A stretch of DNA of 64,000 bases from Vermamoeba vermiformis (GCA_045837725.1 JBEWZL010000220.1:1-64000); one strand, 5' to 3'. Shown: positions 36,501 through 61,787, numbered from the stretch's first letter. The notes: generated by a model from the sequence alone, not told the origin. Program-made: numbers and translations.

Positions 36501-39089
36501 CTACACATTGGACAAGAAGATGTTGGACATGTGCTCGCTGTCGTGGCCGTGCTTGAATCCAATGCTGGCCAGGGCGTGTCCGTAGGTCGGGAACACTTCA
36601 CCATTGGCGCGCTTGACACGGAACCACTTGCGCTTGTTGAGCAGCGGTGCAATGGAGGGATTGACGCCCGTGATCAGCACGCGCTTGCCCTGGTGCATCA
36701 ACTCCTTCAAGCTCTCGCCGAGGTAGTCGAGTCCGTCAATGTCGCAGAAGTAGAGGTAGCGCATGGAGATGATGATGGTGTCAATGTCCGCGAAGAATTG
36801 CAGTCGTTCTTTGTGACTCATGCCGTTGATGTACGTCAACTGTCCTGCGATGCGGTACTGCGAATACGACTGTGTGAGTGTGTGTGCTGACATCATGAGA
36901 GTTATTCCGCGCTACTCACCACTACCACGGAGGGGCCGTGGCGTTCAATGCGCGGCACTTCACCGCTGTCCTCGAGATTGGACTGCAACAGCTCGCTCGT
37001 GCTGTCACTCAGCGGGTGCTCGTGCTCGTCAGTGGAAGTGATCTCCGTGCTGTGCTCCGTGTCACTCACATCGCTCTCGTGCGGACTGCCGCGGCGTTTG
37101 CGTCGCTTGTCGCGGAACTTGACCTCGCGATGCGACACGTAGCGCACATTGCCCTCCTCGTCCTTCATCACGAGCTCGCTGTGCACGTGACTGAGCTCGT
37201 CGCTGAACAGCAGCAGCGACAGCACCATGCCCACCACAATGCCGTAGGTCGGATCTTTGAACACGCAGATCGCGGCCACGAGCAGTGTCATGACGAAGAT
37301 GCCCTTGTCCATGCGCCAGAACCGCACAATGTGGTGGAAGTCGCACATGCGATAGGCCACCACCACGATGATCGCTGCGACTATCGGCAGCGGCAAGTAC
37401 TTGAACCATCTACAGTCGCAGCATTAGCATCGGAGAAATTAACCTAATTAGGCAAGTACTGACCTCAACAGCGCGACCGACAAGAGCAGCACAATCAACG
37501 TGTTCAATACCGCGGCTATTCTGCTCGTCGCACCTGATTTGATGTTCAGGGCTGTGCGGGCCAGGGCTGCAGTCGCGGGAATTCCGTTGAAAATTCCAGT
37601 GAGCAGATTGGCGAGGGCGAGACCGAACACCTCGCGACGCTGATTGAAGTGCGTGTGCGTGAGTCCATCGGCAATCTTGGCGCTGATCAGTGTCTCCAAC
37701 ACCGCGACAAAGGCAATCGAGAATGCCGCAGAAAAGAATTCGAGCGAGACGAATGAACTGCTAAATTTGGGCAATGAAAACAGCGCAAAGTCCAAGTCAC
37801 CGAAGCGCGTCTCCAAGGTCTGAATGTTCTTGCCCGGTATCACGTCATTCGCGATCAGTGCGCCGCCGATGATGCCGATGGTGGCCAGGATAATCGCCCA
37901 GGGCACCTTACCAAATTTAGTAATGAGCACGAGCAGCGCGACGAGTGAGACAGTGAAGAGCACGAGCGAGGCCCAGTCGAGCTGATCGAGCAGCAGCAAG
38001 TTCTCCAGCACATTGTCCACAAAGCCCTCGTGGCGCACGTGCGGCTTGGGCAAACCGAGGGCAAAGTTGAGCTGATTCAGCGCAATGATGAGTGCGACAC
38101 CGAGAGTGAAGCCCTCCGTGACACTAGAGGGCACTAGCAATACAAAGCGCTCCCACTTGAGAATGAAAATGACAAAGCAGATCAGACCAGTAAGAATGGC
38201 CAGGTACGCGAGAGGATCTCCGTCTTTGCCGAATTGTGCAACGTTCTTGGCCAATATACCTGTATTTTAAATATTAATATTACAGTTCACCGCTCTAGCA
38301 TTGGATCGCAATTGTCGGAATTAATAATTTAAGTGAGGCAACAACAATCGGATAAGTATTCAATATATAAATATATTATTTAAATAATTGTATGCGCGAT
38401 ATTGGCACTATTAATCATTGTATGTAGGTATATGCAGAGATTATTGAAATTAGCCGAATTATTTAAGCCTGAGTGTCTTTCTTAACGTCAAATATACCTG
38501 ACAGAGCACCAGTAGGGCCTACAATATTAAAGCTACAGCCACCGAAGATAGAGGCTGCGAGTCCTGCCCATATAGCAGTAACCACTCCTGCAACTAAAAT
38601 CAAATCCGTCAGTTGCAATTATGAATGCGGTGTTTAGTCTTGAAACACGCTCAGCTGAGTTCATATAATCATGATCAGCACAGCCGAGTGTGTCATTAGT
38701 GTCATTATAGGCTACTTACCCGGAGAACTGCTAGCAGCGACAGCGAGGGAGATCGAGAGCGGCAAGTTGACCAGTGCGACAGTGGCCCCTGCGCGCCAGT
38801 TCGTGAGCAGTGCGTGCCATATCGACTTGACACCCTCGCGACTGAACACGTTCTCTTTCACCTCTTCGGCATAGTCGCGCAGGTCTTCTTTGCTCTGCAC
38901 GAGTTCAGCCTGCAATCGTTGCGCACATGTAGGCAGTGGCACGTCTTCACCCTCGAGTTCGGGGTTGTGCAGCGAGGAGGGGTCGATCTTGCCGCTCGTC
39001 TTGAACTCATCGAGCTCTTTTTCGTACTCGATCACCTCCTCGTCGGGGAAGTCCTCTTCGATCTCGAGACGGGTGTCAGATTCACTCAT
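36501..39089 (-). CDS. SulP/SLC26 anion transporter with STAS domain
   Basis: AGATVALVNLPLSISLAVA, GPTGAL, GFTLGVA.II...Q, PATAALART.LNIKSGA, STAS YRIAGQLTYING...D.DG. Confidence 0.93.
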
Positions 39090-39534
39090 TTGTTGTGTTG
39101 AATGAGCTGTCCTAGGATTAATAATTGTTTTGCCACGGTTCATGAACTATCCAATAAAAGTGAGATTTCGATCTTTTAAAAAACGAACGTGCGGAATTTC
39201 TGCGGCTATTTAGGCCGATAATTGGCGGTTGTAAGTCCGGACTGGCTCACGTGTCCGCGGTGGGTCTTAGGGAACTTAAGTCGGCAATGCTTGATGCAGT
39301 GGTGGCGAGCAATCTCAGTGGCGTACAGTTCACTCGTTGTACCAGTCAGCCTCTGAGCCACCAGTGCCCGTACACTGCGATTCGTGTGCTACTCAGTGGC
39401 CTTACTGATGACGCTACTGATACACTGCTCGTGCTGACGTCAACACGCGACAACATTTTGTTTGAATTTGAACGCAGTGTCAACACACAGCTTGTACATA
39501 GTGTCTATATTTATCTGTATTATACCTTAATATA

Positions 39535-40479
39535 ATGCTGCCGCAAACAGTTAACCAAGTGCAGCCCTCGGCGCGAGGACAAACAGATTTCGCGCAATAC
39601 ATCCGAAAGATTTTTCATTATCATCAAATGGACATTGAATATACGTTATGGCAAATGTTTCATTTGTGCGTTGATCCCAAGAAAGTGTAAGTCTCTTTAA
39701 AATATTTTAATTACAATTAAAATTACAAAAATTCGAAAATAATTTCCAATTAATTTTAATGCCGTTACATTCACTCAGTTACAACACTGCGCGCTATCAT
39801 AAACGTAAGTACATATTATTAGCCCAGTCGCGTGCTAATCCAAGTCCTCAGAGACGAAGAACCAATGGGCGCGCGATGATCCAGCCTTTGTAGCGCTCTT
39901 GTTGCTATTTACCGCCGCGGCCTCGCTGTCGTATGCTGTCGCGTACCACGGCACGAGCTGGCGCGTGGTGTCACTCATGTTCTGGACCGTGCTGGTCGAC
40001 TTCTTGGCCCTCGGACTGCTGATTGCCACCACGACTTGGTGAGTGTTGCTATTTATGGCAAGGTATATCACGTGATAGCTGACAGCAGTGCCAGGTGGCT
40101 GGCCAACAAATATCTGCGCGTGGAGAGTTCAGTGCACACGCACACGGTGGAGCAGAGTGTGGAGTGGCTGTACGCGCTGGACATTCACTGCAACGCGTAC
40201 TTTCCCTTATTTGTACTGCTGTATGTATTGCAGTACTTTGTCGTGCTGGCACTCACCACGCCCTCATTCCTCACCACACTCATTGCCAACACGCTCTACT
40301 TGCTCGCCTTCAGCTACTACCACTACATTACCTTTTTGGGCTACACTGCGCTGCCGTTCGTGCAGCAGAGCGTGACATTTCTATATCCGGTGCTGCTATT
40401 AATAGTGCTCTACGTGCTGTCACTCGTGTTCAACTTCAATCTCACCATTGCCGTCATCAACTTCTATTTTGGGAAATAA
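39535..40479 (+). CDS. UNC50: UNC-50 family Golgi membrane protein
   Basis: QMDIEYTLWQM, Y.KQTKNQWARDDPAF, VEWLYALDIHCNAYFP, YYHYITFLGY. Confidence 0.95.
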
Positions 40480-40682
40480 ACTCTTGTTCATAGTTCACTG
40501 AACGAGTGTCGCGCCAACACCGCTGAGTGGTGGGAACTCCCACGTGACTAAAAATAGACGCAAAGTTAAACCGTCATTTTTCAGCGCGAGATTAATTTCA
40601 GTTTTGTTGTGCACTGAACACCAGAGGTCCCTCCTATTAGTGTTATATATAATCAGCACCACATTCATTCAATCAACACAGT

Positions 40683-42420
40683 ATGGACAGCGAAGACGCG
40701 TTAAAAAAAGAAGAAGAGCGGTTGATGCGCGCGATCAGTCGTCAAGGCAGTGTGCGCACAGGAGCGATTAAAACTGCCCCTAAAGTCGCACCCAAGCCCG
40801 TTGAGACCCCCAAAGTGACCCCGCCAGCCAGCAACAGAAACAGCGTCTCGTTCTCGCGCAGTGCTAGCAGATTGAGCAGCTCGCTGTCCGCCGAAGAGCA
40901 GCACAAGCTCGAGCTGGAACTGCAAGAACAAGAGCGCAAGCGAGAGGAGGAGCGCAAGACCTTGGAACGATTGGACAGCGCGCACTTCAAGAAGAAACAG
41001 CACTCGAAGGACTGGTTTGATATTGAGTTCAAAGACGAGGACGATACACCTGCTGCGAGCACCAACAACACTAGTGTGCAGGTAATGAAGTAGTGATCGC
41101 TCGAGAATTCAATTCCTCAAAAATAATTCACCAAAAATTATTTAATAATATTTCTCTTATTTATTATATATTGTTATTACAATAATTGATTTCACTGCGC
41201 CAACTACTGGTGCTATTCATAATGACGGTATGCCACTATACCTTTGATATTAATGCACGTACCAGTCGGTGCTCTCAGTGCCCAAGGTCGAGCCAGTCGT
41301 GACTAGCAGCACCGTGACCAAACCTGTCGCTATTAATAGCAGCAACAACAATATCAACAACCAGAGCAGCACGGTGAAGAGCACTACTGTACCTAGCACC
41401 ACTGCTGTCAGTCACACTGCTGTACCTACCGCTACACGCAGCGCTATTAATAGCAGCACAGCCCCCACCGTCACTACACACAGCACTCCCAAAAATAGCA
41501 CGTCTATAAATAGCACCCCCAGCAGCCCAGCAGTCCCCCAGGGCTGGGTGAGTGACATGGATCAGCTCATCAATTCACTCGCCACTCTCGGCTCTGGTGT
41601 CACGCCCCGACACAAATCTCCGCAAGAGATTGCACTCGACACCTCCACCACCACCCTCCGTTCACTGAAATGGAACTTTGCAGCACCTCTGCCCGAGCCC
41701 CGTCACGCGGAGCTGGGAGTGTGGATCAAGAGTCTCGGAGCGGACCTCCGACAACTGCGCGCGATCCTCGAGTCCGCCACACCGCAGCACAGCGCATTCC
41801 CGTACGTCACGTGCGCAGGTGTCACGCAGTCCCTCGTCACCGCCGTGCTCGACTCACTCGCCCTCGTCACTGCTGCCGCTGACAGAAAGGAAATTTCCAC
41901 CGCACTGCTGGCCCTGGTAGACCGCACGCTGGACTGGTTCGAAGCGATGGGCCGCGACAGCAGCGACGCGACAGCACTGCGCGACAGCACGGGCGAGGCA
42001 CTGACAGCCCTGGTGCGCCAAGTGACAGCTGTCATCAAGCGTCAAACCGAGCACGTGACCAGCAGCACCGCGCAGCAGAGTGTCAGTGTGCCAGCAGTGC
42101 CCGCACAGAGTCGTCAAGCAGTGGTCAGTGTGGTCGAGGAGTGCGCGCGACATGCGGAGCTCATCTCCGAAACACTGAAATCTCCGCCCTACAATCTCGA
42201 GCAGTTCAAGGCGCAGTTGCACCAGTTGGTGGCTGCTGTCAAGAAGATCGATCCCTATCTCACGCGCGAGGGTGATCGCGAGACAGTGGTGCAGTCCACC
42301 AAGCACGTGCTCGAGATGGCGATTGAGCTGCAAACTGCGCCCGATCAGTCACCGCTGCCCGTGCTGACTGCGATCAGCGAACTGTTGCGCGCCCTCACCG
42401 CTGCACTGCGGAGTCAGTAG
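40683..42420 (+). CDS. Unknown protein: charged N-terminus, S/T linker, C-terminal amphipathic helical bundles (talin/vinculin-like, tentative)
   Basis: Two exons (intron ~41082-41265). The C-terminal half has repeated amphipathic helices. Confidence 0.65.
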
Positions 42421-42518
42421 ATAGATATGCTTAGTTGTTCGGCATGATGTACTCGCTATAATAAATGACTTCCGTGTAAGCAGCGCATTCAGTTTACGAA
42501 TCTGTTCGCGTGCACCAC

Positions 42519-45195
42519 ATGACGCGTCTATATTGTGTGTTATATATTGTACTGGCACTGTGGGCGACATTAGCGAGTGCTGATGATGGGCCAGTCGCAG
42601 CACCGCTCGTCGATGAAAGCAAATTTCCAGATTCGAATCGGACTTGCGAGGACGGGATCAGCCCTCGTTTTGCAGCACTGGACTACTGGTACATATCTAA
42701 CTGCACTACATTGGCCAATCAATCAGTGCTGTTCTTCATTCTTGTGGTACGTGATTTTATTTTAATTCTTTATTATTATTTTTAATTTCTGAATAATTCA
42801 CTACTATCAATAATAATAATAATATATATTTATGTGCACAATTTAAATATAAATGGTGCGTGTATGAACGTGCGAGTCCTCAACACTGGACCTGCACCGA
42901 TATGACACTTGATTGCTGCGTCACTTGTAATGCTGCGCTTTGTACCGACATAGCTCTATATATATCACGCACTATAGACTATAATTACTATTGATACAAC
43001 ACCACTCACCATTACACATGCCATCCACGCACTAACCTCGCCAGTCCGCGTGGTTCATCCTGTTGATGTACTTGCTCGTCTCCACCACCGAAGAGTACTT
43101 CTGCGCGGCCATCAGTCGGTTCACTGAACGGCTCAAACTCTCCAACAACTTGGTGGTAAGTCATTGCCTAATTTGGACATGTGCTCGTGCTCACCACCCA
43201 CCAGGGCGTCACGTTCTTGGCCATCGGAAATTCAGCTCCCGAAGTAAGATCGATTTCCTAATAAGGAAGTCATGTGTGGCTGACACGCGTTCTAAAAATA
43301 GATCTTCACTACACTCCTGGCGATCAGGGCCTTTTCCCACTGGGACGAGTGGCAACAAGATGACAGTAGCGACACCAATCACGTGATCGGCACTGGCGCT
43401 TACGTGGCAGTGGGCACTGTGATTGGCTCGTCGATGTATGTCCAAATTAGGCAAGTGTCGCAATGTACTCACGCGCTAATTTTAGGATCTGTTCGACGCT
43501 GCTGCTCGCTGTGTTGACCTTATTTGGTAACAGCGCCAAGTATCAGACACCGAACACGAGCTTTCTACCAGGGTAAGTGACACTTTGACACGTGATTTGA
43601 TTGACACGTGTCACATTATTTTTCACGGCGTGTCAAACAGTGACTGACACATTGCAAACAGCATGCCCGAAGTGACAAGTCATCCAGCGATGCGAGGTGA
43701 GTGCTTCAGTGAACGAGCAGTTGCCTAATATAGTCACCTAACCAAATATAGACGTGGCCATGTTCTTGGTGTCCATCGTCGTGACAGTCGTGCTGTTGAC
43801 AGCGGTGGATCTGCCCCTCGTGTGGAAGGGTGTCATTATGGTGGTGCTATTTTTAGTCTATCTCGCCGTGGTGTTGGTGGCACGTCACGTGGCACAGACG
43901 CAGAAGGCCAAGCGACGTCAGTACTTGGGCATTCTCGACACCGCTGACGAGTCGCTGTTTGACGCGCCGAATGCGGAGATGAACGACTACGGCATCGACG
44001 ACATTCTATTTTTAGCCAATCGACACCAGCAGCAACACCCGCTCGTGCTGTCACTCAATGCTGACCCGCAGTTTGAGGGCGCACGTGACTGCAACTCTCG
44101 CATGCGCGGCACGTGGGACAGACTCGTGGCAACTGTCGCGTGGAGTGACAAGGTAAGCGCTTGATTGCCTAATTTGGACAGCGCTGATCACGTGACTAGA
44201 CCCTGGGCGAGCGTGTCGTCTTCATTTTGACACTTCCCGCTGAACTCGCGCGTCGTGTCACCATCCCGCCCCTGTCAGAAGTGCGCTGGTCCAAGATCCA
44301 AGCGGTCATTTCGCTCACTGGCGGACCTCTTTTCCTTTTATGGGCACTCGAATGTACGTCACTTGCCTAATTTAGACATCTCTGACCTTTTGCATTTGCA
44401 GCTTTTGCCGAAGAGATCGATGTGGGTCTGAACATCAAATTTCCTTATTGGTCCATCGTGCTGGTGGTCGGTGCTATATTTAGCACCATCGTGTTCTTCA
44501 CATCACGTGACTTCAGACCCCCGACCTACTTCATGGCACTGGTCGTGTTCGGCTTTGCAGTGGCCTCGGTCTGGCTCTACGTGCTCGTGCGCGAACTGCT
44601 CGGCGTCGTGGTGCTGTACGTGCAGTGCAGTGTTTGACACGTGTCACTGACTGACTCTCAATTCCCCAGGGCCATTGAAACCATCGAGTCCGAGCGCATG
44701 AGTGAGATGAGTGACGGCTATCCCTCGGCACTGTGGGGTCTGCACTTGTTGGCCTGGGCCACGGGTCTGCAGGACATCATTGCCAATGTCTTGCTCGCCT
44801 CCCTCGCCCTGCCCTCCATGGCTGGTACGTCACGTGATCTATTTCTCCGCACCTATCTCCGCGGTCACTAACTGAATTCGTTGTTTGCAGTGGCCGCAGC
44901 ATTTGCAGCCCCGACCATGGCCCTGCTGATCGGTCTCGGTGTCACGTGCATCGTGGAAGGTGTCAAACACTATCCCGCACGACACCTCGTCATGCTCGAC
45001 AACGCGCTGCTGGTCGGATTCGTGCTCTTGTTCCTCTCGGGCCTGGTCTCGCTCGTCTGGGTGCCCCTCGCCGCACGCATTCCCGCCAAGACCTTTGCAG
45101 GCGTGCAGCTCGTGTTGTACGTGCTGTTCGTGGTGTTCACCGTGCTGGTCGAGTTCAGATATTTGTTGCCCAATCCGATCTTCACGCTGCAGTGA
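42519..45195 (+). CDS. Cation/Ca2+ exchanger (CCX/NCLX-type)
   Basis: EEYFC..I....ERLKLSNNL.GVTFLAIGNSAPEIF (alpha-1), TIPP, GLHLLAWATGLQD.IAN (alpha-2), AAFAAP..LLIGLG. More than 10 introns. Confidence 0.88.
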
Positions 45196-45472
45196 ACCTG
45201 CCGTTCTGTGAAATGCTTTTTGTGAATTATGTAGATAGATAAAACATCCTTATCCAGCACTGTCTGCTTCTAGTCGAGGTCAATGCGTTCAATCGGATCC
45301 ACCGTCACGTGGTGGGATTGTCACGTGACTCCATCGACAAATAGTGTCGTGCCGGGGCATTCTCACAAAAATCGCGGAGTGAACAGCACGGTCAGCTCTA
45401 CAAAAATTGAGCATTAATTATTGCGCATTAGTACTTGTCACATTAATACACATCGCAGCTGCACGCGTAACA

Positions 45473-46389
45473 ATGGATCCACAAGCTAAAGCAAAGCAAG
45501 CAGCCAAACAATTAAATCTCGACTGGGATTCAATAGCGAATATTTATCTAATAGGCAGTCGATTGTGGGGCACATTCACCGCGCAGAGTGACTTTGATCT
45601 GCTGATCGTGCTCAAAAGCACCAACAACAAAAAACAGCTCAAAACCACCCCTAATAACAGCGCTAAGCACACTAAAAAGGCCGCGCATAATAATAACAAC
45701 ACTAGTGATGAAGCGAGTGGTTCGCACCGCGTAGTGCACGCAGGTCAATTCGACGCACTGCTCTATGACGAAGAGCTCTACATCCAGCGGTAAGTAGCGA
45801 CTGACCGTGCTATTATTATTATTATTAGTATGCATATAGTGCACTATATCCGCTATATTCGCCCTTCCAACACCTCGCACTCACAGCCCAGTAGGATCAA
45901 GCAGTACTCGTTCTTGGAAATGCTCACGCTGTGGATACCAGCTGCAAATATCTGGAAGCAAGAGATTGATCCGCGCACGTACTGGCTGCAAATCAACCAG
46001 GGCCCTCACGCGACACAGCTCTGGACCAGCACCACCGAGATGATTGAGCGGGACATGCGCGTGGCTCAGAAACACTTCGAGAAGGGTAATTGACACGTGT
46101 CAGTCACAGTTTGACACTTTGGATGACATTTACCTAATTAGGAAGTAAAGATCGTGCGGCACGTGTCATCGGCTGCACTCTGCGTGTGGCTCAATTTGCA
46201 GCAGACATTGCCGAACAAGGTCACGTGACTGACTTCCAATCTGCAAATGAAATGATCAGTGCGCTCTACCAGGGCCTCGATCAGCACGATTGGAACACGT
46301 GGCGTGACACGTGGCGCGGCACATTGCGTGCACACTTGCAACGACTGCAAACACGCTGCGAGGCTATTTTGGGTCGTCCGCTACAGTAA
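45473..46389 (+). CDS. Pol-beta-superfamily (minimal) nucleotidyltransferase
   Basis: IYLIGSRLWGT....SDFDLLIV (hG[GS]...DxD), candidate third Asp in QFDALLY, helical C-terminus. Three exons. Confidence 0.8.
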
Positions 46390-46561
46390 CAGTGCCACTT
46401 GCCTTATTTGTACATTTGTAATATACTTGCAATTAAAATCAGCTCTTCGTGCCTCTGCCAGGGCTCTGTCACTAAAAATAGTTGCTGAGAATTTTAAGTC
46501 ATTCTGTCACACAGCTCAGTAGCAACACATAATATACATAGACATAGATAAAAAAAGACTA

Positions 46562-47682
46562 ATGAGTGACACGAGTGCACAGTACGAGTCACTGCTCGCT
46601 GACGGCAGTGTCTCCAAACAAGTGATCAGATCGGGAAGGCTAGTGAACCAGGGTGCGCGTCCCGAGTCTGGCTGGAATGTCGGAGGTACTTAATTTATTA
46701 TAATAACACTTTATAGTGAATAATAATAATGCATTGAGCACTTGGTAATAACAGTTGCACGCTTGGAAAATAACAAAAATTATTTTGCAAGTAATTATTA
46801 TTTTATTATTATCTGCAATTGTTATTACATCATATGCCCACTATACGACTACGCTATTGCTATGGCATCTAATATTGCCGTATAGTGCACTACGAGATGT
46901 GGTTACAAGACGCAGACACATCCACGCCCATTGACTCCACCGCACAGCGCGGAATATTTCAATTTGAACTCGGTGCTGGCACTGTGATCACGTGTCTTGA
47001 TCTCGCTGCGAGATCGATGCAGCTCGGCGAAGTCTGTCACGTGATTGCAGCGCCACAGCACGCATTTGGCAAGCTGGGCCTGTCCCTCGCAGGTGTCACT
47101 GTGCCACCCAATGCGAAGTTGAAGCTAAAAATAGAACTCGTGCAGGCCACGCCCGGCACGCAGCACGTGACAGTTGCAGCAACTGATCGGTTGACAGCCG
47201 CGACAGCAGCCAAAGACAATGGCAATGCACGTGTGAGCAAGAGCGACTTCAGCGCAGCACGTGACTGCTATCACGAGGCACTCAATGTGCTCGGTGACGT
47301 GGCACTCGACCCTGTGGAGGACGAAGCTAAATTTAGAACTCTGCGCGGTCAACTCTGGTCAAACTTGGCACTCTGTGAATTGAAATTGCATAATTTCAGC
47401 AAAGCTATTTTTAGCTGCGACAAGGCACTCGTAAGTCACTTGCCATATATAGTAATGCGACACTAGCTGACACAGTGCCAGTCCTATGATCCCAACAACG
47501 TCAAAGCCATGTTCCGCAAAGGTCAAGCGTTGGAGTACAGCGGAGAATTGCGCGCAGCACGTGATCAGTACAGCAGCACGTACCAGCTGTCGCGCACAGC
47601 CGAAGTGAAGACAGCACTCGAGGGCGTCAAGAACAAACTCGCTGCCAGCTCTGGGGGCCTGCGCGGCATGTTTGACAGCTAA
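46562..47682 (+). CDS. FKBP-type PPIase with TPR domain
   Basis: DGSVSKQVIRSG, VHY, F.FELGAG.VI..LD....M..GE, VPPNAKL...IEL, TPR (AKDNGN, SNLALC.LKL, NVKAMFRKG). Confidence 0.92.
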
Positions 47683-47859: not shown

Positions 47860-49131
47860 TTATTTGTCAGTGGGCTTCTGATTGACGACGTGTGATTGGC
47901 TGTATTGCGACACATCGACACCTTGCGCCTTCTCAGCCTCAATCTGCAGCTTGATCCAGTCAAAGGTGCGCTTCAATCCGTCCTTCAATGAGATGCTCGG
48001 AGCCCAGCCCAACTTCTCGCGAATGAGCGTGTTGTCGCTGTTACGACCGCGCACACCTTCAGGGCCCGGGATGTGATGCAACTTGGTGCTGTTCTTCTTG
48101 CCCGCGAATTCGAGCACGAGGTGCGCCATCTCGTTCATGTCCACCATCTCTTCGCTGCCAATGTTGATCGGCTCGCGCACATCGCTGCGCATCAAGCGCA
48201 ACACACCCTCCACGCAGTCGTCGATGAAGCAGAAGGAGCGCGTCTGCTTGCCGTCACCCCACATCTCAAACACATCGCCGCACACAATGGCCTTGCGACA
48301 GAACGCTGCTGGGGCCTTTTCGCGCCCACCCTTCCAAGTACCGTGCGGGCCGTAGATGTTGTGGAAGCGACCGAGGCGGAACTCAATGCCAAAGTCCTGC
48401 AGTCACGTGTTAGTTGATTCTCGTTCACTGAATGGCCATCGAGGCACGTGACCGAACTCTGGATCAACTCCGAGAGGGGACAGGAGGACTTACCTTGTTG
48501 TAGTATTTGCAGAGCTCTTCAGTAACAATCTTTTCGAGACCATAAGCGTCTTGAGGTTGAGCGGGCCATGCATCTGACTCCTTCAAACCGGGATTGGCTG
48601 TTTCCAATTGACGGTATTCGGGATAAATGCAAGCAGAAGAGCTGTAGAAGAATCGCTTGACTGAGCCAGAGCGACGAGCAGCCTCGACCATGTTGAAACT
48701 GAATTGAAACGCGGGTGTCAAAAAGAAAGTTTTTCTGCAATAGATTCCGACGTTTCAAAAATAAAAAAGAAAACAAACAAACCGCAATGTAAAATTATGA
48801 AATTGTAATATTCGCTATAATTATGCTCATACCTGATCATAATGTTGTTGTACAAAATAACAGAGTGGTTGGATTGAATGAAACCCATACCGCCCATATC
48901 CGCAGCAAAGTCGTAGACTTCATCGATACCCTGGCACATCTTCATGCATGTGTCCAAATCACGCAGATCCACTTCATGGAACTCGTCGCATATTTCGTTG
49001 TCGTTGAAGTAGTGACCCTTCTTCCAGTCAGCAATACGGACGAAGTGACCTTCAGCCTTGAGACGCTTGGCGACGTGACTGCCAATGAAACCACCACCAC
49101 CAGCGACGAAAATACGGAGTTTAGTTGCCAT
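47860..49131 (-). CDS. GME: GDP-mannose 3,5-epimerase
   Basis: GGGGFIGSH, AADMGGMGFIQSNHSVILYNN, SSACIYPE, AWPAQPQDAYGLEK, RFHNIYGP.GTWKGGREKAPAAFCRK, GPEGVRGRNSDN. Confidence 0.95.
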
Positions 49132-50637: not shown

Positions 50638-50807
50638 ATGTTCTATTTATAGCTGCTGTCGTACTCTTACCAGCGCGGTACTGTGTTGTGTTGTGCTGTC
50701 ATCTACGAGGCATCGTGTGCTTAAGTTTGCGAGTGTGCACTGACGAACAGTGGCAATCACTCGTTGAGTGCTGTTTGCATTGCTCATCCATTCAGTGAAC
50801 GCACTGT

Positions 50808-52286
50808 TCAGTGAAGCCACTCCTCCACTCCCCACAGTAATTGCTCCAATTCTTTCAACGACGAAAATTCGCGCCTTGGTGGCACTACGCCATCACGCAG
50901 CTGTCGTTCGCTCGAGTCGTGGTCTACACCGCGCATGTAAGGGGTCGGATAGGGCACCGGACACCACTCTGGATGCGTCATCCACACGGTACGTATCGCG
51001 TCCTGCTGCCAGTCAGTGCCACGAATCGACGCGCAAGTGCGTTATTCAATGTTACCTGCACGTGAATGAGCGTGTAGCACATGCAACGATAGGCCAGTGT
51101 CGCGAGTGGGCCAAAGTAACCTGCGGGGAATTGCTGCGAGCACTTGTTAGTATTGCCAAATTAGGAAAGAGGACCATTTACCTTGACAAACTCCGCCAAA
51201 AGCTGCTTGTCGCATCTAAATAAGGCAAGATGAATGGCCACGAGTTCGTATGCCGTGTCACCGACCAGCGTGTCACCGAAGTCGATCAATGACACGGGCT
51301 TCCACTTGACACCTTCAGGCCAGGCACCGCGCGGATCAATGTTGATCACGTGCTCGTTGCTGTCCACCAACACGCCCAGCACTTGTTCGTCGCTGAGGTC
51401 ACCGTGGAGATACACGGGAGATTGATCACGTGCGTGTCTGAACAGCTCTCGCGCATCACGTGGGAGATAGTCATCGAGCTCTGCGATGAGATTGGGTGAC
51501 AGCAATTGCCATTCTTGGTGACGCGAGCGACAGCTGCGCCGTTGTTTGGCGATGAAGTGCTCGAACTCGTGCCACGTGTGCGGACCAGTGGGCGTGAGCT
51601 GATGCAACTGCGGCATCCACTCCACCAAGAACTGACACGTGCGCGTCATGTCGTCGCGTGTCAACTTGTCAAATACGCGAATGACAGGCAGCGCAGTGAC
51701 GTAGGTCAACACAATGTACGGCCAGGGCCACACTTGATCGTAGCTGAAGTGCGGGTAGGGCGTGTAGTGCGGGTGTTGCGGCTCTGACTCGTCCTCGTCG
51801 TAGAGTTCAGCCAGCACTCCCTTGGCCAGCATGCGCGGGGTGACGCGAGCGAGAGCGGGCTGATGTTGCGTCAAGTACTCGTAGAAGCGCGACTCAGTCT
51901 TGAAGCCCTTGGAGCCTGCAAAGTACGAGCTGCTCAGCTTGATGACGCACTGCACGGACTCGAGCTCGTGGGGCTGCGTGCTGGGGCTAACGACTTGACC
52001 CTCGCGGATCTTCCATCCGTGTATAAAAAATACCTGATGATGTTAATCGCATTACAACGCGTTGATAGCAATTCATGAATGAAAAACTTAAAAAAACTAA
52101 AATATGGAATTCGGATCGATTACTTACAGGATTTGTTCCATCTTGCAACGATACAATATTGGGACGAAATTGATCGCTAATTTCCACGATTTTGTGGTGC
52201 GAAAGGATGCGGTAAAGCATAGGGCGCCACATCCGCGGCTGCTTGAGTGCTTTCATATAATCATTGACATCTACAAATGATAGCAT
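50808..52286 (-). CDS. Aminoglycoside-phosphotransferase-like (APH/ChoK) kinase
   Basis: GTNPV, VIK, E..FY, WPYIV, LH, YLHGDLSDEQVL, IDFGD...GD..YELV.IH...FRCDK.LL, CYTLIH. Multi-exon. Confidence 0.8.
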
Positions 52287-52521: not shown

Positions 52522-53405
52522 ATGGTGGTATGTATTTTTGTTGTTTGGTTATTTAACAACGATAAGGGAAAATATCAACTCGGATTTATGGCCAACAACC
52601 CACCATGCGGAAATGCAACTCGATTATTATTAAAATAATTAATTCGTACAATTGGTTGGATTATTGATGGCATAATAACTCAATTTACACGACCGATCAC
52701 CAATAATTATTATTTTTTAATTATTATCAGTATTTATTGTGGTTGAATACGCTTAATTAATAATATTTTGCAGTACCAAGAATTCGTCGTTATCGGCCGT
52801 GCCAAGCCCACCGAAGCTGATGCTCAACCCAAGATCTACCGTTTGCGCATCTTCGCTAAGACCGAATTGATCGCCAAGAGCCGCTTCATCTTCTACTTGA
52901 GAACCACCAAGAAGATCAAGGCTGCTCACGGTGAGGTCCTTGCTGTTCACAAGGTAACTAGGGCTTAAAGATCGCACCAATAATATATTGTGGATTTGGA
53001 CAAATATTATTTTAAATTTTCAGCACCTGAAATAATAATTTCTAATTCGTATAATAATAGATTTCTGAGCGCAATCCTCGCCACGTCAAGAACTACGGCA
53101 TTTGGTTGAGATACCGCAGCGCATCCAACCAACACAACTTGTACAAGGAGTACCGTGACGTCTCTCGCGCTGGTGCCGTGACTCAATTGTACAACGATAT
53201 GGCTGGCAGACACCGCGCCTCATACAGTGCCATTCAAATCATTGACATTAAGGAAATCGATCCTAAGGACTGCAGACGTGAAAATGTTAAGCAATTCCAC
53301 AACGCCTCGATCCGATTCCCCTTGCCCCACAGAGTGTTGCGCGCCTCGCACCCCAAGTTCAAGACTACCTTCAAGGCCCACAGACCCATCACTCACCTTG
53401 GATAA
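52522..53405 (+). CDS. RPL18A: 60S ribosomal protein eL20 (L18a)
   Basis: YQEFVVIGR..P, KIYRLRIFA...AKSRF, VKNYGIWLRYRS...HNLYKEYRD, QFH..IRFPLPHR. Two introns. Confidence 0.97.
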
Positions 53406-53625
53406 AACAGTTCTGTTGCTCAAATACAATACGAATAATAACAACTGCAAGTGTGGGCACTGCCGTTCTTGGCACCGAGAAATAAAACAAAAATCTCAAA
53501 AATACTTGCTTTGTAGAGTTGTATTGAGTGTGTACTCGTATGAATAGTGCGGAGGTGTGACACCAAAATCTCTTTCGATTTCTGGTTGCGGCTAATTTTC
53601 TCTGAATCTGACGCTGACTAACACA

Positions 53626-54599: not shown

Positions 54600-54719
54600 T
54601 AATACAACCCCGTGCTCGAGGAGGAGCTGATTTGTACATACTTGCACGTTTCGCTTATTTATTGCGATGTATAGTTTATAAAGTAAATCATTGTGAGAGC
54701 TTGATCTGTACTAATTAGT

Positions 54720-57270
54720 AGCATCAGGCCTTCATGTTGTTGCTTTGGAAGCTCGTTCTACACTTGACATTTATTTCAAACACGATTTTGCACCATAATA
54801 TCGGCTGGCTAAGGGCCCTTTGTGGATGCTGACTGGAAATTCCTCTTAATACTGTACCGAAAAGTAATGGATCTGATGGTGAGTGGACAGTGTGTTGGGA
54901 TGAAACAGAGATGTTTTGTTTAGGTAATTCCGTGGAGGTTGTCTTGCTCAATTTGAGCAGGACGTCTGGATTTGGACAGGGCGTCTACTAGTAGTAGTAG
55001 GTTTCTCTATCTCCAGTGGCTGGAAGCTGATGTGGATGGAAAGTTCATGCCTAGTAGTATCATATATGCTCTACCTCCGCAGCAAACAGAATTGAATTTC
55101 GTTAATTACTAACTTCAGTGGATGCCCCGTCCGCATCTGGACGCCTTGTCCCTGGATGGACACCCTGTCTATGGACGGACGTTCCCTCTAATTTGGGCAG
55201 GACGACCTCCCTTGTTCAGCAAAAACAATTACCAAGGTGGACATCACAGATCAGGCAAAAATTGGATGTCCGCCTAGGGATTGAGCTGAGGAAAGTTCCC
55301 AGTTTTTGAAATCAAGCTCCAAAGAATAGAATGGCGGATGTCCCATCCACCAAAAATTAGACGTCCACCATGGACCACACGTCCGGCGACCATACATTAT
55401 ATAGTACAAAGTTTTTAACAGGATTTCTATATGCCATGTATGTGGTTAAGCATATCCCTTCCATATAAAAAGGTTTGCCACCAAGCTGGACAAAGTTACA
55501 ACATAAAAAAGTATGAATGATGCAAAAATTTTTGGACAGTTAGGTGACAATGAATTGTAGCCAAAGTTCAGTGGCATAAAATGCGTATAGTTGTGTTGTA
55601 CACAGTATGTGCTGATGGATGGGTTCACACTTAATGCTGAAAAATTACAAATTGCTGTCACTACAATATCTTTGACGATTACTCATATCATCTTGTTATC
55701 TGGTGATAGTTCTATGTATTTCCAAAGTTTAAATGGTTTTGCAGCATACAGAACAAAGTTCTGGTACTTAAGTTCTTTGCAGAACAAAGACATTTTCAGC
55801 CTCCAGCGGCTAGCCCAAAGCCTTCTGATGCCAATAGTAGCCTTCTTGGGCCCGCTGGTGCTAATGGCAAAGTTTGGTTTAAGTTGGTAAATTACTAACA
55901 TCAGCGGACGAAGTGACCCTGGACAGATGCAATGTCCATGGATGGACGAAAAATTTTTGGCAGACAGGATGTCTGCATGCATTCGTAAAAACGTGCAGTA
56001 TTGCTGTACTAAACCACATTATTTAAATTCTATGGTATTCAGCTCTCCCGAAATCCCCCAAATGCACAAATCACAGTCTATACCTTTGTGATTACTGCAT
56101 CTCACGTTATAGTACTGTACTAGCTACTGGCAAGTTAAAAGGGTCAGCAAAAGAACAAATTTCTTTGGACGAAGTTCTTTAAAGAACATTGCCATTTTTA
56201 GGGGCCCATAGCCTCCTACCAACAGCGTTTGCTGCTGGTGCTAATGCCAGAGTTTGTTTAAACAAAACGAACACTGGCAGGTAAGTCAACACATGTGCTC
56301 CTGAAGTGTGTGATGTTTACAAAGTTTGTGGCCCATGAATCCTGTCTGGCAAAAATTGGACGTCTGCCATGGACTGCACGTCCACCGACCATACATCAAG
56401 TAGTATGATGCGTTTGATAAGATTTCTATATAGTGTATATGATTAGGCATATCCCTTCTCAGAAAAAGGGTTGCTCAATACTGGACATCATTTAAAATAT
56501 AAAAAGTATGGATAATGGAAAAAAAGAACAATGCCATTTCAGCCTCCAGCGCTTAACCCAAGCATCCTGATGACAGAAGTAGTACTTCTTTGGCCGTTGG
56601 TGAATGGTTAGAGCGCTCTGTCCAATTTGGACACCCTTCTCAGCTTGGGCAACCTCCCACACAGACAAAAAAAACTCTTGAATGAACTACGCAACTAAAA
56701 ATTGGTAGACAAAGCCTGGGCGCCCTTTGGATTTGGCCCCTCCAACAGGGAGTGTTCTATGCAGAGCGCCTCTGCTGGTGGAGCACTGCGAATCCAAGGA
56801 GGTCGGCCAAGTTGGCCAGTGTGGCCGGCCTGGCCAGTCCGGTATGTAGGTATGGTACAAGGCACCAACTGGCGCCCCTCCCGTCAACACAGCAACAACT
56901 TTATTGAGTCCTGCCTTGTAAGAAGTCACAGTATTATAATGGTCTCCTCTCACCTAGATCCCTCCGAACAGTGCACCAAAAAAACAGCCCAGAATAAATG
57001 TTCAGCCATTTGAAAACCAAATTACCTTCAGCCTCTGACACTACTCAGCTGTGAATTTCGCACAAGACCATCTATCAACTTGATTATTCATTTTACCTGT
57101 TGAACATAGCACCAAATAGCCATAACGTCACAGCCTAATTGAGCAATACTCGCAAGTAGTCAAAACATCGTACAAGGGTATGCTGAAAACAAGGGGTTAT
57201 TTAAGAGAACTATACTACCCTTCTTTGATGAATTCCGCAGGTTTATTTTTGTAATTTTTAGACAAAAAGC
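54720..57270. mobile_element. Degenerate transposon-like island (CpG-poor, repeated GGACGTCC-like motifs, internal diverged duplication)
   Basis: No credible gene model. Diverged direct repeat 55351-55860 versus 56350-56602. Many ggacgtc/ggatgtcc/ggacatc variants. Confidence 0.55.
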
Positions 57271-57279
57271 TGCCGTGCC

Positions 57280-58988
57280 TTATTTTTGCAGGGCACTATT
57301 CACGTGTTGATGCAATGTTTGCAGCTTGTCGTGCTCAGCTTTGAGCTCCGCTTGACGCTGCTCGCTGTTCTTGCGCTTGAGGTACTGCGGCGCGAATTGG
57401 AACAGACTCTGCGGTGTTTCACTGAACAGCGGAGTAACAAAGCGGCGCTTCTCTTTGCGGCGCTGCAATTCTTCCGCGGGCAGATACTGTGCCATCGATT
57501 CGCGACGTGACACGCGCTTGATCTTCACTTCGCGCACCACTTTGCGCTGTTCGCTCGGAATCATCACGTGACTGGGATTGTAGCCTAATTTGGTAAGTTC
57601 GGCAGGCAGTTCGGCGTAGAAATTTCGCACGTCAGTGGCGAGAGCACGTGCATTGACACGTGAGTGCAATCGTGCGAGTCGGTCGACCAGGGCCTGAGCG
57701 CGGTCACGCAGCGCAGTGGCAGGTGGCACCCAAGCGAGTTCAGCGACGAGTTGTTTGAGCGGCAGTTCCAAGATGGTGACAGCAGGGGTCGGAGGCTTGG
57801 CGAACTTGTCAATCAGTGCCATCGTGTCGCTCACCAGCTGCCAGTTGTGCACGCGCACAGCCAGACGTGTCAGCACGCCCCAGTACTTCTCGTCGTGCGC
57901 GCTCAGTTGGTGCACGCGCTCTTCAATCGTGTGCGCGTTGACTTTCTTTGACCACACTGCCGCAGAGAGCACGTGACGCAGACTGGCACGTGACAGGCGC
58001 GCACCTTTGTGTTCGAGGCGCGAGTAGTAGCGCACGAGGGTCTTGGCGTCCCCGGCGAGTGCGGCACACTTGAGCACGGCGAGCAGATTGTCGCGCGAGG
58101 GCAGCAGCTGGTGCGGATAGAAGCACTCGTACACCTCCAAGCACTGCGCGATCAGTCCTGACTCTTGATAGGCGAGCAGCAGTGCGTTGAGGGTGGTGTG
58201 ATCCGGTACAAAAGTGCGGTGCATGTTGCTGCTGTCGAAGATGTGCGCCTTCTTCATGTCTTGGTAGATCTGGCGGGTGAAGTCGCGTTAGTAGGGAGCG
58301 TTGCGCGTACAATATTGCACAAATGTAATGCGTAATTGAATTCACTGAAAAGCAGATGTGGCATTACCGTGTCAGCGTAATTGAACTTCTGATGCAGGCC
58401 ATAGTACACCAGCAGTGCATCGTAGACTAGCTTGTCGTTATATATAGCTTGTTGTTGGCCCTTCAGCGTGGTTTTCAAGTCCAAATACGTCACCCAAGCT
58501 GCATCGAGTTCGCCGCGCTTCAAATAGCCAAAGATCAATTGTCTCGCGTCCTCCAATGAGGGTAGTTTACTATGCGCCATCTTATTCTCGCGCGTTGCGT
58601 CCATCAGCGCAGTGAACTCGCTGTCTGAGAGCTGTGGCATCTGACTCTCGATCCAAGCGACGAGTTGACTGTGATCGGGCAACACTTGACGCACTCTATT
58701 GGCCTCCTCGGGACTGAGTTCACTAATAGGCTTCAAATTCGAGGGCAATTGCACTGCTGGACTCGCGCTGAACATTCGTCGCTGAATCTGCTGCAGATTA
58801 TTCTCCACGACTCTGGTGCTATTATTGTGATGTGTTTTGACGTTGTAACAAATACCAGTATTATAAGGGGTATTTTTATGATTTTTAGAATAATTTCTGC
58901 CGCAGTTGAACATAACTCCAGTCGCAGATCTGGGAGTGGATGCAACTCGCACCACTGAAGCTAATAATGCGCCAGACCGTTGCAACAT
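57280..58988 (-). CDS. Mitochondrion-targeted PPR-like protein
   Basis: R/S-rich presequence. PPR-like units VYDALLVYYG...IYQDMKK and PDHTTLNALLLAY..SG....CLEVYE. An intron ending ...ctactaac...cag near 58270 joins the two ORFs. Confidence 0.8.
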
Positions 58989-59160
58989 ATTTGAGCACTA
59001 GTGTACGAATATATGCACAGATTTTGTAGCGGTCTAGTGCTGGCGTGTCAAAACAATAAATAAATAATAAATTAATAATTATTTCTTTTTTGTCCGTCCT
59101 GTTAGCAACACCACAGCTCGTACAAGATCACTTGCGAGTGCATTACACTACACATTTAAT

Positions 59161-61456
59161 ATGAATACGCAGCCAATGGCCGCTGCGCAAGTAGAGACTA
59201 CGCAAGTCTCGTTTCTGATCGACACTACATTCGCCCTCAAAGCGTGGTGGGAGACTGTAGGACTCGGCATTGTATCTGAGCTCGTCAAGTACGTAGTATA
59301 TATATATACTATTCTTGCCGCTCTGCTCAATCAGTCCTTTGCTTGGATCAGCATCCAATGCATGCTTACAATTCAATTCTTTGAACGAATCATTCATGAA
59401 CGGCACTGTACTGCACTAACACGCACCTATTCTCAGAGCTCTCTCTCCCAAGACACCTGACAACCCCACGCCTGGTGCTCCACCGCCCAAGCAAGTAAGT
59501 TGCACCTAAAAATAGCACTTGCCCAATATAGTCACGCCAATCACGTGCCTAATCTCGCGCGCAGATGCAGAACAAGCGCGTGGAGTGGAGTGTGGTGCTG
59601 TACCGCTCGCCCATGCCGTGGAGTGACTTTGTGTGCCAGGCCAGCGAGCTCGGCACCGATCCCAAGCGACTGCAAACCATCTTCCAGGGCATCAAGTTCG
59701 AGGGCGGTCATTTGCAGCACTTTGCATTCACTGAAGCACTCTGCGCCGCACACAACTCACTCACGCGCAATTCTCCGCCCAACAAGCGCGTGACAGCTCG
59801 TCACGTGATCATCATTTGCAGCACGGGACCGATCGGCATTAATTGTTCCGCTCCTGGCTGCAAATATTATGACACGTGGCATGAACACGTGGCACGCATC
59901 AGCAAAGACCTCGGTGCCAAGCTGTCACTGCTGTCACTGGCCAACACGGAGGACTTGCGACAGATGCTCAAAATGGTAATGCAAGCATTGCAAGTATTTC
60001 ACGCACTGACTGTCATGTAGGTGCGTCCAACCGACTCGTTCACTGAATTGAAAGGAGCTTACGCGTCATTTGACCCGTCCATTGAGAGTGAGTGATCACG
60101 TGCTGTTGAGATGCATTGCCTAATTTGGACATATCTATTTTTAGTACCGCAGTCCCTCATGCCGCAACACGCCGTGCCCATGCCCGTAGCCCCCGCACCG
60201 CTGAGTGCCACCAATGCACCCAAGCCCGTGCACATGACACCTGTCACACATGTCATGTCCAGCACGGGGGTCAGTGTGCCTATAAATAGCACTGGCAATC
60301 CTGTACTTGCCAATTCTGGCAATCCCATGCTCAACCCCTCGCACATGCCCGGACGACCGAGCGGTTTTCAACCGACCCCGACATTTATGCCGGGCAGTGC
60401 GGGGCCCATGATGACTTTCCCGCCCGGGCAACCCGCGCCATCGAAATTTCCCGAGATCAAACCTCGTCCCGTCACTAATTCTCCGGGCATGATTCGTCGG
60501 AGCAATACCCCGACACCGCAGAATGCACCAGTGGCACTTGCCAAATCGGGAGGGGTGATGAATGTCGGTCAGCCTTCCTTATATGGCAATGCAGGGCCTC
60601 GTCCAGCTCTCGGCGGAGATTTATTGGCCGCGTACCCCGCACAAGCAGTGCGGCCAGTGTGGATCGGAAATCTCCGCTTGAGCTCGCAGACCCTCAACAT
60701 GGCGTGTCGCGTGCAAGCAGTGCCAGCGAACCCGAAATCTCCGGGAGATAGCAGCGGAGAATTAAGTCTGACGGAGTGGAACAGCGACCTGTTCATCACG
60801 CAATTTGTTCCGCTCGATGCTGTCAAACGTCTGACGAGCTCCACGACACCACGTGTCATTGTGCGATTCATGCCGCACGAGATGCAGTACGTGACTGACG
60901 ATTGCCTAATATGGTAATAAGTGCTGATCGATCTGACAGGGACAAGCAACCATATTTGGAAATGGTCAATCAGTTCAAGAGCGGTGCGGTACGTGTCAAA
61001 TGCCGTATTCAGCGAGCACTTGCCTAATTTAGTCATTGATTCCTAGTTTGGACTGGTGGAGCTGCAGACCAAGGCAGTGCTGATCGGACTCACCGCACAG
61101 CCCGCGCGCACGTTCATGGGACTCGTGGTGCCGCGTGAGTCCTGGCTGCGCGCACAACAAGCGACCAATCAGAGCCAAGCCAATCTCGCGCTCGCACCCA
61201 ATCTCGGTGCTGCTCCGAACCCTGGTGGAGGTGTCGCGCAGTTCCGCCCCGCACTCAACCAGGGCCAATTCCAGGGCCAGCAGTTCTTCACTCCTCCGAA
61301 CTTTGCACCGAGTAAGTATTGCACGAATTTGGCGCAAAGACTGGTGACTGACTCGTTTTTCCTAATTTAGAACAACCAGCGTACAACATGAACATGCAGA
61401 ACACGGGTGTAAATTTAGGCAATATTAATTACCGAGGACCCAATTCATTCCAATAA
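59161..61456 (+). CDS. MED25: Mediator subunit 25 (VWA + ACID/PTOV-like)
   Basis: VSFLIDTT..L..WW, WSVVLY, I.FEGG...A.TEAL, HVIIICS.GP (Med25 VWA), Pro/Met linker, VWIGNL...W...L.I..F (ACID-like). Confidence 0.78.
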
Positions 61457-61787
61457 TGACTCGTAACTGAGTCTGTTGCCTTATTTGGACAATTAACCTT
61501 TTTTGTAAATAAACTGTACAATTTTACTGTCGTTACGTACACGGCGCTATTTTTATATACAACGAGTTGATCACGTGACTTTGGAAGCCAGCAGTGACGA
61601 GGTTCGGGGAATTTCCGCTTGAGAATTCTTGAGCGGAGAATTAGAGCGGAGATAATCGTCGCGCACACTGTCCATTAATCCGCCCTTGTTGTCACGTGCT
61701 CGCGTGCCAGGCGTCAGCACAGGAATATCTGCAATGATTGAGTGAGCATGATCAGAGTTCGATGAGTTATTGCAATTATTCGCAGTG

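Follow-up and report, generated by a model that had tools for sequence, protein, structure and literature searches.

We analyzed a 64,000-nucleotide stretch of Vermamoeba vermiformis DNA (GCA_045837725.1, JBEWZL010000220.1:1-64000; hereafter the window) in which short words of the form CC(W)6GG (W, A or T) occupy introns and exons of unrelated genes. A previous reading of the bare sequence (the sequence-only reading) had taken these words for SRF/Mcm1 sites of the MADS-box type and had noticed few of them in the first 37 kb. The source is a microbial eukaryote with densely spaced GT..AG introns, and genes in the window include those for SulP, UNC-50, FKBP-TPR, APH-domain and kinase proteins, MED25, UCH, LUC7, a DOMON-cytochrome b561, eL20 and a GDP-mannose 3,5-epimerase. 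The epimerase is ~72–75% identical to its closest named relatives and eL20 ~55–58%. No tRNA was found in the window, and no Rfam family reached its gathering score there. Pfam confirmed the earlier labels SulP, APH and MED25; the labels CCX and NTase came from reading of the translations and have no Pfam hit.

Three Families of Words Exceed Expectation

CC(W)6GG occurs 18 times in exact form, compared with 2.5–4.1 copies expected under four backgrounds: 2.57 in dinucleotide shuffles (standard deviation 1.54, largest count 7; none of 100 shuffles reached 18) and 2.50, 4.12 and 3.33 in Markov models of orders 1, 3 and 5 (60 simulations each). The sequence-only reading had allowed that a higher-order background might abolish the excess; it persists under all of them, and the ~1.5 copies first expected were of the right order, if slightly low. 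All 13 coordinates first given are exact and belong to the 18, which also include 43518 and 44334 late in the window and 5618, 7446 and 24566 early in it. Few copies indeed lie in the first 37 kb, 15 of the 18 being at or beyond 37443. The one-mismatch copies noticed near 44366, 61023 and 61361 are genuine and all read CCTAATTTAG. The proposed consensus, the 16-mer TTGCCTAATTTGGACA, is borne out by four exact copies (43164, 44165 and 60116 on the plus strand, 43439 on the minus strand), and with up to three mismatches it has 17 matches in the window where 0.66 are expected.

The observation is thus real, and it is wider than first described. A second, MEF2-type skeleton, CTA(W)4TAG, had been overlooked: it occurs 22 times, compared with 0.67, 1.00 and 2.22 expected under the Markov backgrounds, and about half of its copies have a symmetric G at −1 and C at +1. 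We counted as MADS-like all words of the form C[CT]W6[AG]G, that is, both skeletons and the hybrids CC(W)6AG and CT(W)6GG. The hybrids number 18 (5.5–8.2 expected), which is fewer than independent half-sites predict: by our arithmetic, the 18, 18 and 22 copies of CC..GG, hybrid and CTA..TAG words compare with ~12.6, 28.9 and 16.5. This shortfall suggests that CC(W)6GG and CTA(W)4TAG are two distinct classes of site, as with two MADS subfamilies.

The enrichment is specific to these flanks. Around exact W6 runs with S (G or C) flanks past 36 kb, CC..GG tops the 33 flank classes with 15 of 106 runs, and the runner-up has 6. Eight other dyad flank pairs (GG..CC, CG..CG, GC..GC, CA..TG, TC..GA, AC..GT, GA..TC and AG..CT) are all at or under expectation. 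Likewise, CTA-W4-TAG has 20 late copies and 2 early ones, and other X-TA-W4-TA-Y classes are similar in both halves.

The third family is built on CACGTG, the sole strongly enriched palindrome among 6-mers, with 93 copies in the whole window (examples lie at 44188-44197, 45320-45329 and 46220-46229) versus 23.6 (order 1) or 44.0 (order 3) expected. Its flanks are mirror-symmetric, with R (A or G) at −2, T at −1, A at +1 and Y (C or T) at +2. The extended form CACGTGAC is found 36 times (3–5 expected), 33 of them beyond 32 kb, and GACACGTGTC 5 times (0.08 expected). Copies of CACGTGAC within genes show no strand bias, 9 being sense and 12 antisense; together with the mirror symmetry of the flanks, this is as expected of a homodimer site on DNA. 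MADS-like words tend to lie near CACGTG: 13 of 50 late sites are within 40 nt of one, compared with 7.5 (standard deviation 2.5) at random. A general excess of palindromes, or a quasi-palindrome correction, was ruled out as a source of the words, the enrichment being limited to specific ones.

Exonic Words Exceed Synonymous Expectation

Synonymous codons were shuffled 1000 times within each of 21 clean exon segments chosen by hand (9,927 nt); two segments lacking an open frame were discarded, and two UNC-50 segments that were open in two frames were read in the first. Under this null, which does not preserve codon pairs, 1.32 MADS-like words are expected and 18 are present, a ~14-fold excess that none of the 1000 shuffles reached. 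The two skeletons are each in excess (CTA(W)4TAG, 11 versus 0.47; CC(W)6GG, 4 versus 0.17), as is CACGTG (26 versus 11.2, not reached in 1000 shuffles), while eight control patterns pooled give 4 versus 3.26. The sites occupy all three codon phases (13, 3 and 2) and both orientations. Thus, the nucleotide sequence itself is subject to some influence that does not depend on the protein, and we consider this exonic excess the strongest result of the analysis. The exons of the epimerase, kinase, eL20, UCH and APH genes have no MADS-like site in the same test.

Six of the exonic sites (43847, 44006, 51216, 57584, 60280 and 60577) lie beneath ungapped pieces of RNA contigs. The first is CTATTTTTAG at 43847..43856, read as the codons CTA TTT TTA G, with a twin at 44006-44015 in the same 403-nt exon, and both are covered by the ungapped piece 43750-44150. 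The MED25-like gene has CTATAAATAG at 60280 and CCTTATATGG at 60577 (60280..60586), under the piece 60145-60767. The exonic CC(W)6GG at 57584..57593, under the piece 57277-58269, belongs to a minus-strand gene and is antisense to the intronic form. The exons of the FKBP-TPR gene bear three CTA(W)4TAG words, at 47125, 47327 and 47405 (47125..47414), in two codon phases. A further four copies fall within 41330..41513 in an S/T/N-rich open reading frame (ORF): CTATTAATAG at 41330 and 41444, CCAAAAATAG at 41489 and CTATAAATAG at 41504.

The 16-mer and Its Place in Introns

When 22 exact and variant copies of TTGCCTAATTTGGACA are aligned, information is restricted to 16 positions and the flanks carry at most 0.3 bit, so that this is a discrete site and not a repeated intron. 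The 16-mer is asymmetric: its left half, TTGCC TAAT, is strict and its right half loose, and TTGCC..GGACA is the commonest form. It mostly lies 8–34 nt past the 5′ splice site and upstream of a separate branch point. The earlier description of most words as lying in ~50-nt introns and some in codons stood up, since we place 8 of the 15 late CC(W)6GG copies in introns and 5 in exons, with 1 across a 3′ splice junction and 1 in a 3′ flank.

On the plus strand, the cation-exchanger-like gene (43044-45270; hereafter exchanger-like) has a MADS-like word in 6 of its first 8 introns (43156-43204, 43244-43301, 43436-43485, 43697-43751, 44153-44199 and 44354-44401). The exact 16-mer at 43164..43179 (+) starts 9 nt past the 5′ splice site of the first of these introns, before a CTCAC branch-like site; the one at 44165..44180 (+), in intron 44153-44199, is followed 9 nt downstream by ATCACGTGAC. 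The exact copy at 43439..43454 is reversed, on the minus strand right behind the 5′ splice site of intron 43436-43485, and is the sole antisense copy of the 17 intronic ones. Intron 43244-43301 has the variant TTTCCTAATAAGGAAG at 43254..43269 (+) and forms the only significant RNA hairpin among the 12 introns that we folded; intron 44354-44401 has a one-mismatch copy, TTTAG for TTTGG, at 44363..44378 (+). An RNA contig covers 43044-43154 and 43750-44150, and the 294 letters between these pieces in its record equal the 595 genomic bases less 301 nt, the length of the first five introns. These introns are therefore removed, the one with the reversed 16-mer included. The other two of the eight introns have the palindrome GACACGTGTC and no MADS-like site (43603..43612 in intron 43573-43661; 44636-44645 in intron 44616-44669).

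Copies also occur in other genes. The exact 16-mer at 60116..60131 (+) belongs to the MED25-like gene, in an intron whose last base is 60144. No branch-like site occurs there besides the CTAAT of the 16-mer, 19 nt before the 3′ splice site, and an RNA contig piece begins right after the intron, at 60145. Variant copies are found at 37440..37455 (−) in intron 37410-37463 of the minus-strand SulP gene, in sense orientation, and as TTTCCTAATTTGGCAA at 51153..51168 (−) in an intron of the minus-strand APH-domain gene, before a TACTAAC branch site; an RNA contig piece begins at 51182. The word CCTAATTAGG at 46133..46142 (+) spans the 3′ splice junction of intron 46086-46141, with CCTAATTAG before the junction and G after it. 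This intron also contains GACACGTGTC at 46092-46101, and a splice joint near 46080-46140 is present in 2 RNA reads. Downstream of the MED25-like gene, in its 3′ flank, a one-mismatch copy (61476..61491, +) immediately precedes a TGTAAATAAA stretch.

A Second Locus

We scanned metagenomes for the exact 16-mer and obtained at least 117 loci. Among the matches listed, most are chance occurrences or unrelated repeats, one repeat family of related contigs supplying many, and none shares sequence with the window (blastn, E 1e-5 or better). Only contig L053, whose sequence matches that of L023 exactly over 2,222 nt, has the features of the window among these matches. Its IRE1-like gene has 8 MADS-like sites in 2,622 nt of exon versus 0.79 expected; one of these owes its inclusion to ascertainment, and none of 1000 shuffles reached 7. 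CACGTG occurs 13 times in the same exons (4.36 expected). The three introns of the gene bear, in order, a CArG-like word, GACACGTGTC and CTATAATTAG, and an exact 16-mer lies inside an exon. A neighboring ribosomal-protein gene has AT-rich introns, all of them free of words. The pattern is thus replicated at a second locus.

The Pattern Follows Genes, Not a Region

Past 36 kb lie 50 of the 58 MADS-like words in the window. Successive 4-kb bins hold 1, 2, 0, 0, 0, 3, 1, 1, 0, 4, 16, 11, 3, 0, 3 and 13 of them, and two domains are dense: 39900..47600, with 27 of the 58 sites in the UNC-50, S/T-rich, exchanger-like, NTase-like and FKBP-TPR genes, and 59400..62100, with 14 sites in the MED25-like gene and its 3′ flank. 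ORFs before 36 kb contain 2 sites versus 2.0 expected, compared with 29 versus 4.0 in the late ORFs, a set that includes some stop-free introns. The early half still has ordinary eukaryotic genes. A nucleosome-like periodicity in the spacing of sites was unconvincing, the best periods in the two dense domains being 165 and 155 nt (P = 0.53 and 0.046).

Introns fall into two classes: long ones (97–298 nt), mostly AT-rich and free of words, and ~50-nt, GC-balanced ones packed with words. The long class occurs in the highly expressed eL20 and GDP-mannose epimerase genes and as a 5′ intron of the exchanger-like gene; its members 42747-43044, 48699-48832, 52528-52773 and 52954-53060 were compared with the word-packed introns of 43156-44890. 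The ten RNA-supported introns among the joints listed belong to the eL20, epimerase and neighboring genes and are 57–298 nt long and mostly AT-rich. None of these ten has a MADS-like word, and two have CACGTG.

The metagenome contig shares the pattern, and highly expressed genes inside the dense part of the window lack the words; the pattern therefore tracks genes and not the region. It belongs to a class of genes with modest expression and short GC-balanced introns. The region-wide gene-body binding code of the sequence-only reading is accordingly supported as to gene bodies and not as to region, and its binding proteins are putative. The same reading had held that this is not ordinary promoter regulation, which agrees with the position of the sites in gene bodies and 3′ flanks of unrelated genes, unlike those of a promoter regulon.

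Likeness to Known Sites

The words share with the SRF/Mcm1 CArG box, CC(A/T)6GG, the CC-W6-GG skeleton and cores rich in CCT/AAT (CCTAATTTGG, CCTAATTAGG and CCTTATTTGG). Several copies have a T-rich outer flank on the left (TTGCC, TTTCC or TTACC) and an A-rich one on the right (GGCAA, GGTAA or GGAAG), which may resemble the Mcm1 P-box, and the 16 informative positions are the size of a footprint. They differ from CArG boxes in lying in introns and exons of unrelated genes rather than in promoters, and in the asymmetry and the intronic sense orientation of the commonest form. Likeness to SRF/Mcm1 sites thus holds for the enriched skeleton and fails for symmetry and orientation in introns, where the extended 16-mer is neither a dyad nor indifferent to strand as a homodimer site would be; exonic copies occur in both orientations.

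The 22 copies of CTA(W)4TAG have the exact skeleton of MEF2/Rlm1 sites, CTA(A/T)4TAG, with an enriched core that forms a class apart. Unlike such sites, about half of them are inside coding exons, seven are at intron 3′ ends, and CTATAAATAG is also TATA-like. The CACGTG words resemble bHLH-ZIP E-boxes of the Cbf1, USF and TFE type (TCACGTGA) in their core, their RT...AY mirror flanks and their indifference to strand; they are unlike E-box sites in their number in 64 kb and in being enriched, beyond promoters, in short introns and, beyond codon usage, in exons. Plant intron-mediated enhancement signals and "duon"-type exonic transcription-factor sites likewise lie within transcribed regions, depend on orientation in introns and overlap coding sequence. 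The words described here differ from these in occupying all introns and not only 5′-proximal ones, in being absent from the top-expressed genes and in being long, specific and of dyad type. Cis-regulatory coding exons are the topic of PMC2831330. Full-text literature searches, supplementary files aside, turned up no account of introns and exons saturated with MADS-like or E-box words.

Sites on DNA or an Element of the RNA

Our preferred reading, held tentatively and at less than even confidence, is that the words are predicted DNA-level binding sites for dimeric factors, held by selection across the gene bodies of a subset of genes. Three families of dyad-type words would be kept far above chance over the transcribed region of these otherwise ordinary genes: CC(W)6GG, with TTGCCTAATTTGGACA as its best form, (G)CTA(W)4TAG(C), and RTCACGTGAY or GACACGTGTC. 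By resemblance, the candidate factors would be SRF/Mcm1-type and MEF2/Rlm1-type MADS proteins and bHLH or bHLH-ZIP proteins. Sites would lie mostly in ~50-nt introns because these are the only unconstrained DNA in tightly packed genes, and would also be written into exons through the choice of codons. We infer that proteins bind the words, and that the bound proteins may organize chromatin, serve as intragenic enhancers or mark origins or sites of recombination. The MADS-type skeletons and the E-box, the unbiased orientation of exonic sites and the co-occurrence of MADS-like words with CACGTG all support sites on DNA, as do the specificity of the flanks, the exonic excess, its replication in L053, the discreteness of the 16-mer, the symmetry and strand indifference of CACGTG and the lack of sites in the ten RNA-supported introns.

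Several points weigh against such sites. The word-bearing genes (SulP, UNC-50, exchanger-like, FKBP-TPR, MED25 and IRE1-like) are functionally unrelated, unlike a regulon. The chief of them is that intronic 16-mer-like copies are in sense orientation in 16 of 17 cases, by our count from gene strands. Moreover, the second-last G is replaced by A in 8 copies, the mirror change on the left being found once. Neither the orientation nor the asymmetry is predicted by a symmetric dimer site, and the orientation favors an intronic element that acts in RNA. Avoidance of cryptic 3′ splice sites does not supply the reason: in 795 nt of intron interiors AG and YAG are not depleted (AG 37 versus CT 43; YAG 21 versus CTR 19), so the sense bias is still unexplained at the DNA level. 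Seven CTA(W)4TAG or hybrid copies are intron 3′ ends, composed of a branch-like CTA, W4 and the terminal TAG. All four exonic copies in the S/T/N-rich ORF fall on x-I/K-N-S peptides, and a repeat at the protein level may contribute to them. Several intron and exon limits are our own models, automatic models having conflicted with several RNA joints and served as a guide only. Finally, the data base for all counts is the 64-kb window and one 4.6-kb metagenome contig.

The alternative that survives best, possible although on the doubtful side, is that the intronic 16-mer (UUGCCUAAUUUGGACA in the transcript) acts in RNA, as a splicing enhancer or silencer or as an auxiliary SF1/branch-site-like element. 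It would be read by a sequence-specific RNA-binding protein or a guide RNA in short GC-balanced introns, and the exonic CTA(W)4TAG words would be a separate phenomenon. Besides the sense orientation, this accounts for the position of the element, mostly 8–34 nt past the 5′ splice site and ahead of the branch site, and for the strict left half, which contains a branch-like CUAAU, next to a loose right half. It fits the lack of the element in highly expressed genes, whose long AT-rich introns might serve the same need by diffuse AU-richness. In bearers, CTGAC, CTCAC or CTGAT is also commoner than CTAAC, which 6 of the 10 RNA-supported introns have, a small sample. However, exons are enriched in the identical skeleton too, whatever its orientation or codon phase; the companion words have dyad symmetry and no strand bias; and one exact antisense copy sits in a spliced intron. 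Sixteen informative positions are many for an RNA-binding protein, and the sharing of two MADS site skeletons would be a coincidence. The introns have no common fold either, only 1 of 12 having a z score below −2 versus shuffles.

A wider form of the preferred DNA-level reading, which we regard as rather unlikely, would extend it to a genome-wide gene-body code. Selection would then maintain high-affinity sites for MADS- and bHLH-type proteins in almost all short introns and, in exons, at synonymous positions, and the factors would serve as architectural marks inside modestly expressed genes, for example as nucleosome barriers, as marks of replication origins or recombination, or in the control of elongation. 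Carrying sites would be part of the reason why short introns persist, and a directional coupling to transcription or splicing would underlie the sense bias.

It is quite improbable that the words have no present function and come from a sequence-specific bias of mutation, repair or gene conversion, possibly around bound proteins, so that they accumulate under weak selection and are purged from highly expressed genes. The sequence-only reading had named a mutation or conversion bias as its other option. Such a process would fit the absence of words from the top-expressed eL20 and GDP-mannose epimerase genes and their presence in unrelated, modestly expressed ones, the spread over introns, exons and flanks alike, and, as a regional process, the contrast between early and late ORFs. 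However, palindromes are not in general excess, with CACGTG alone strongly enriched and eight control flank pairs flat; four exact 16-mers with unconserved flanks resemble constraint, not drift; and we know of no process that writes two specific 10-mers and a 16-mer.

An origin of the motif-bearing introns as copies of a short mobile intron family, with the 16-mer as conserved core, is very improbable. Like introners (PMC11282704), many short introns of unrelated genes have a common sequence in sense orientation, and in some copies GTAAGTCAC or GTACGTCAC stands just upstream of the core. Target-site duplications and terminal inverted repeats are hallmarks of introners (PMC11282704). No junction repeat of 3 nt or more was found in 15 motif-bearing introns, and the complementarity of their ends (2–7 of 12 positions) equals that of 13 motif-free introns. 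Whole introns are not similar, as conservation ends at the 16-mer, and the core lies anywhere between 8 and 34 nt from the 5′ splice site. Copies also lie in exons and 3′ flanks, including the exact 16-mer in the exon of L053. With neither conserved flanks nor the two hallmarks, these introns are not introners.

Least of all do we credit that the motif is the host's extended branch-site consensus around CTAAT, a scarcely tenable idea. CCTAAT does fit CTRAY, and four copies (46133, 60119, 61023 and 61361) may double as branch sites: the word adjoins the 3′ splice site at 46133 and 61361 (through CCTAATTAG and CCTAATTTAG, respectively) and is the only or best branch-like site at 60119 and 61023. 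In addition, an identical 10-mer stands 4–9 nt ahead of intron ends in L113, a metagenome contig of 63% GC. Nevertheless, the RNA-supported introns, none of which has the motif, carry a branch-like CTAAC 9–18 nt from the 3′ splice site; most bearers have a CTGAC, CTCAC or CTAAC of their own at the usual distance, with the A of the motif 19–40 nt from the 3′ splice site and in most ~15–20 nt from the 5′ one; one copy is reversed and others are exonic; and the motif has 16 informative positions. CTAAT as a branch site thus fails to explain the pattern, as the sequence-only reading had argued from reversed and exonic copies, and the motif-free introns of highly expressed genes show that the motif is neither a branch point nor a general splicing signal. 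Readings as an off-frame "hidden stop", a TATA box, an Sm site or a minor-spliceosome branch site were set aside because they would leave the fixed CC/CT...GG/AG flanks unaccounted for.

The results point to an intragenic sequence code not described before. Should proteins bind the words and selection maintain them, a DNA-binding code extending through genes would be shaping both the choice of codons and the sequence of introns, and classical promoter factors would serve as intragenic marks. Short introns would gain a concrete function as carriers of protein-binding sites, which bears on why tiny introns persist. If the 16-mer acts instead on RNA, it would be an unusually long and specific intronic splicing element that defines a subset of genes. 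Either way, the words are relevant to gene finders and motif scans for this lineage.

Other Observations

The word CCTTATTTGG occurs in the 3′ flank of two genes (61479-61520 in the window; 4420-4460 in L053), a few bases ahead of TGTAAATAAA, and may be a 3′-end signal. The complementary 10-mers CTAAAAATAG and CTATTTTTAG share transcripts at 47125-47134 and 47405-47414, at 59506-59515 and 60135-60144, and at 43292-43301 and 43847-43856; long-range RNA pairing is conceivable.

The metagenome contigs L113, L109, L016, L035, L039, L043, L014, L021 and L058 come from other organisms, and we offer remarks on them only. In L113, which encodes a Brr2/Ski2-like helicase, CCTAATTTGG or CCTAATTAGG lies 0–9 nt before intron 3′ ends (13040-13112, 8670-8682 and 10892-10901); one intron has three copies of the 10-mer, which there resembles a branch site. 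In L113 (1795-1822) and in GC-rich L109, a perfect 9-bp inverted repeat, CGAAACTTG...CAAGTTTCG, encloses the exact 16-mer in its loop; these may be copies of a small repetitive element from another organism.

Between 42001 and 62000, raw RNA reads labelled with the organism of the window are mostly 95–99% identical to it (3,297 of 3,374 in X22 and 4,008 of 4,053 in X24), and for runs labelled with other organisms most RNA contigs are at least 99% identical. A diverged strain thus exists, and the organism turns up in the libraries of other species.

The early part of the window has features of its own. An uninterrupted ORF of 1446 codons at 12605-16945, amid intron-bearing eukaryotic genes, fuses DUF1800 and DUF1501, which are mainly bacterial families, and is possibly a gene transfer. 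A tandem array at 2222-3239 has ~25 copies with a 30-nt period and a 198-nt higher order, inside an ORF (2183-3328) with no Pfam match. At 26235-27142, degenerate 9-, 15- and 30-nt tandem repeats with a unit of about GGGTTGACC cover a stretch that has several open frames on both strands.

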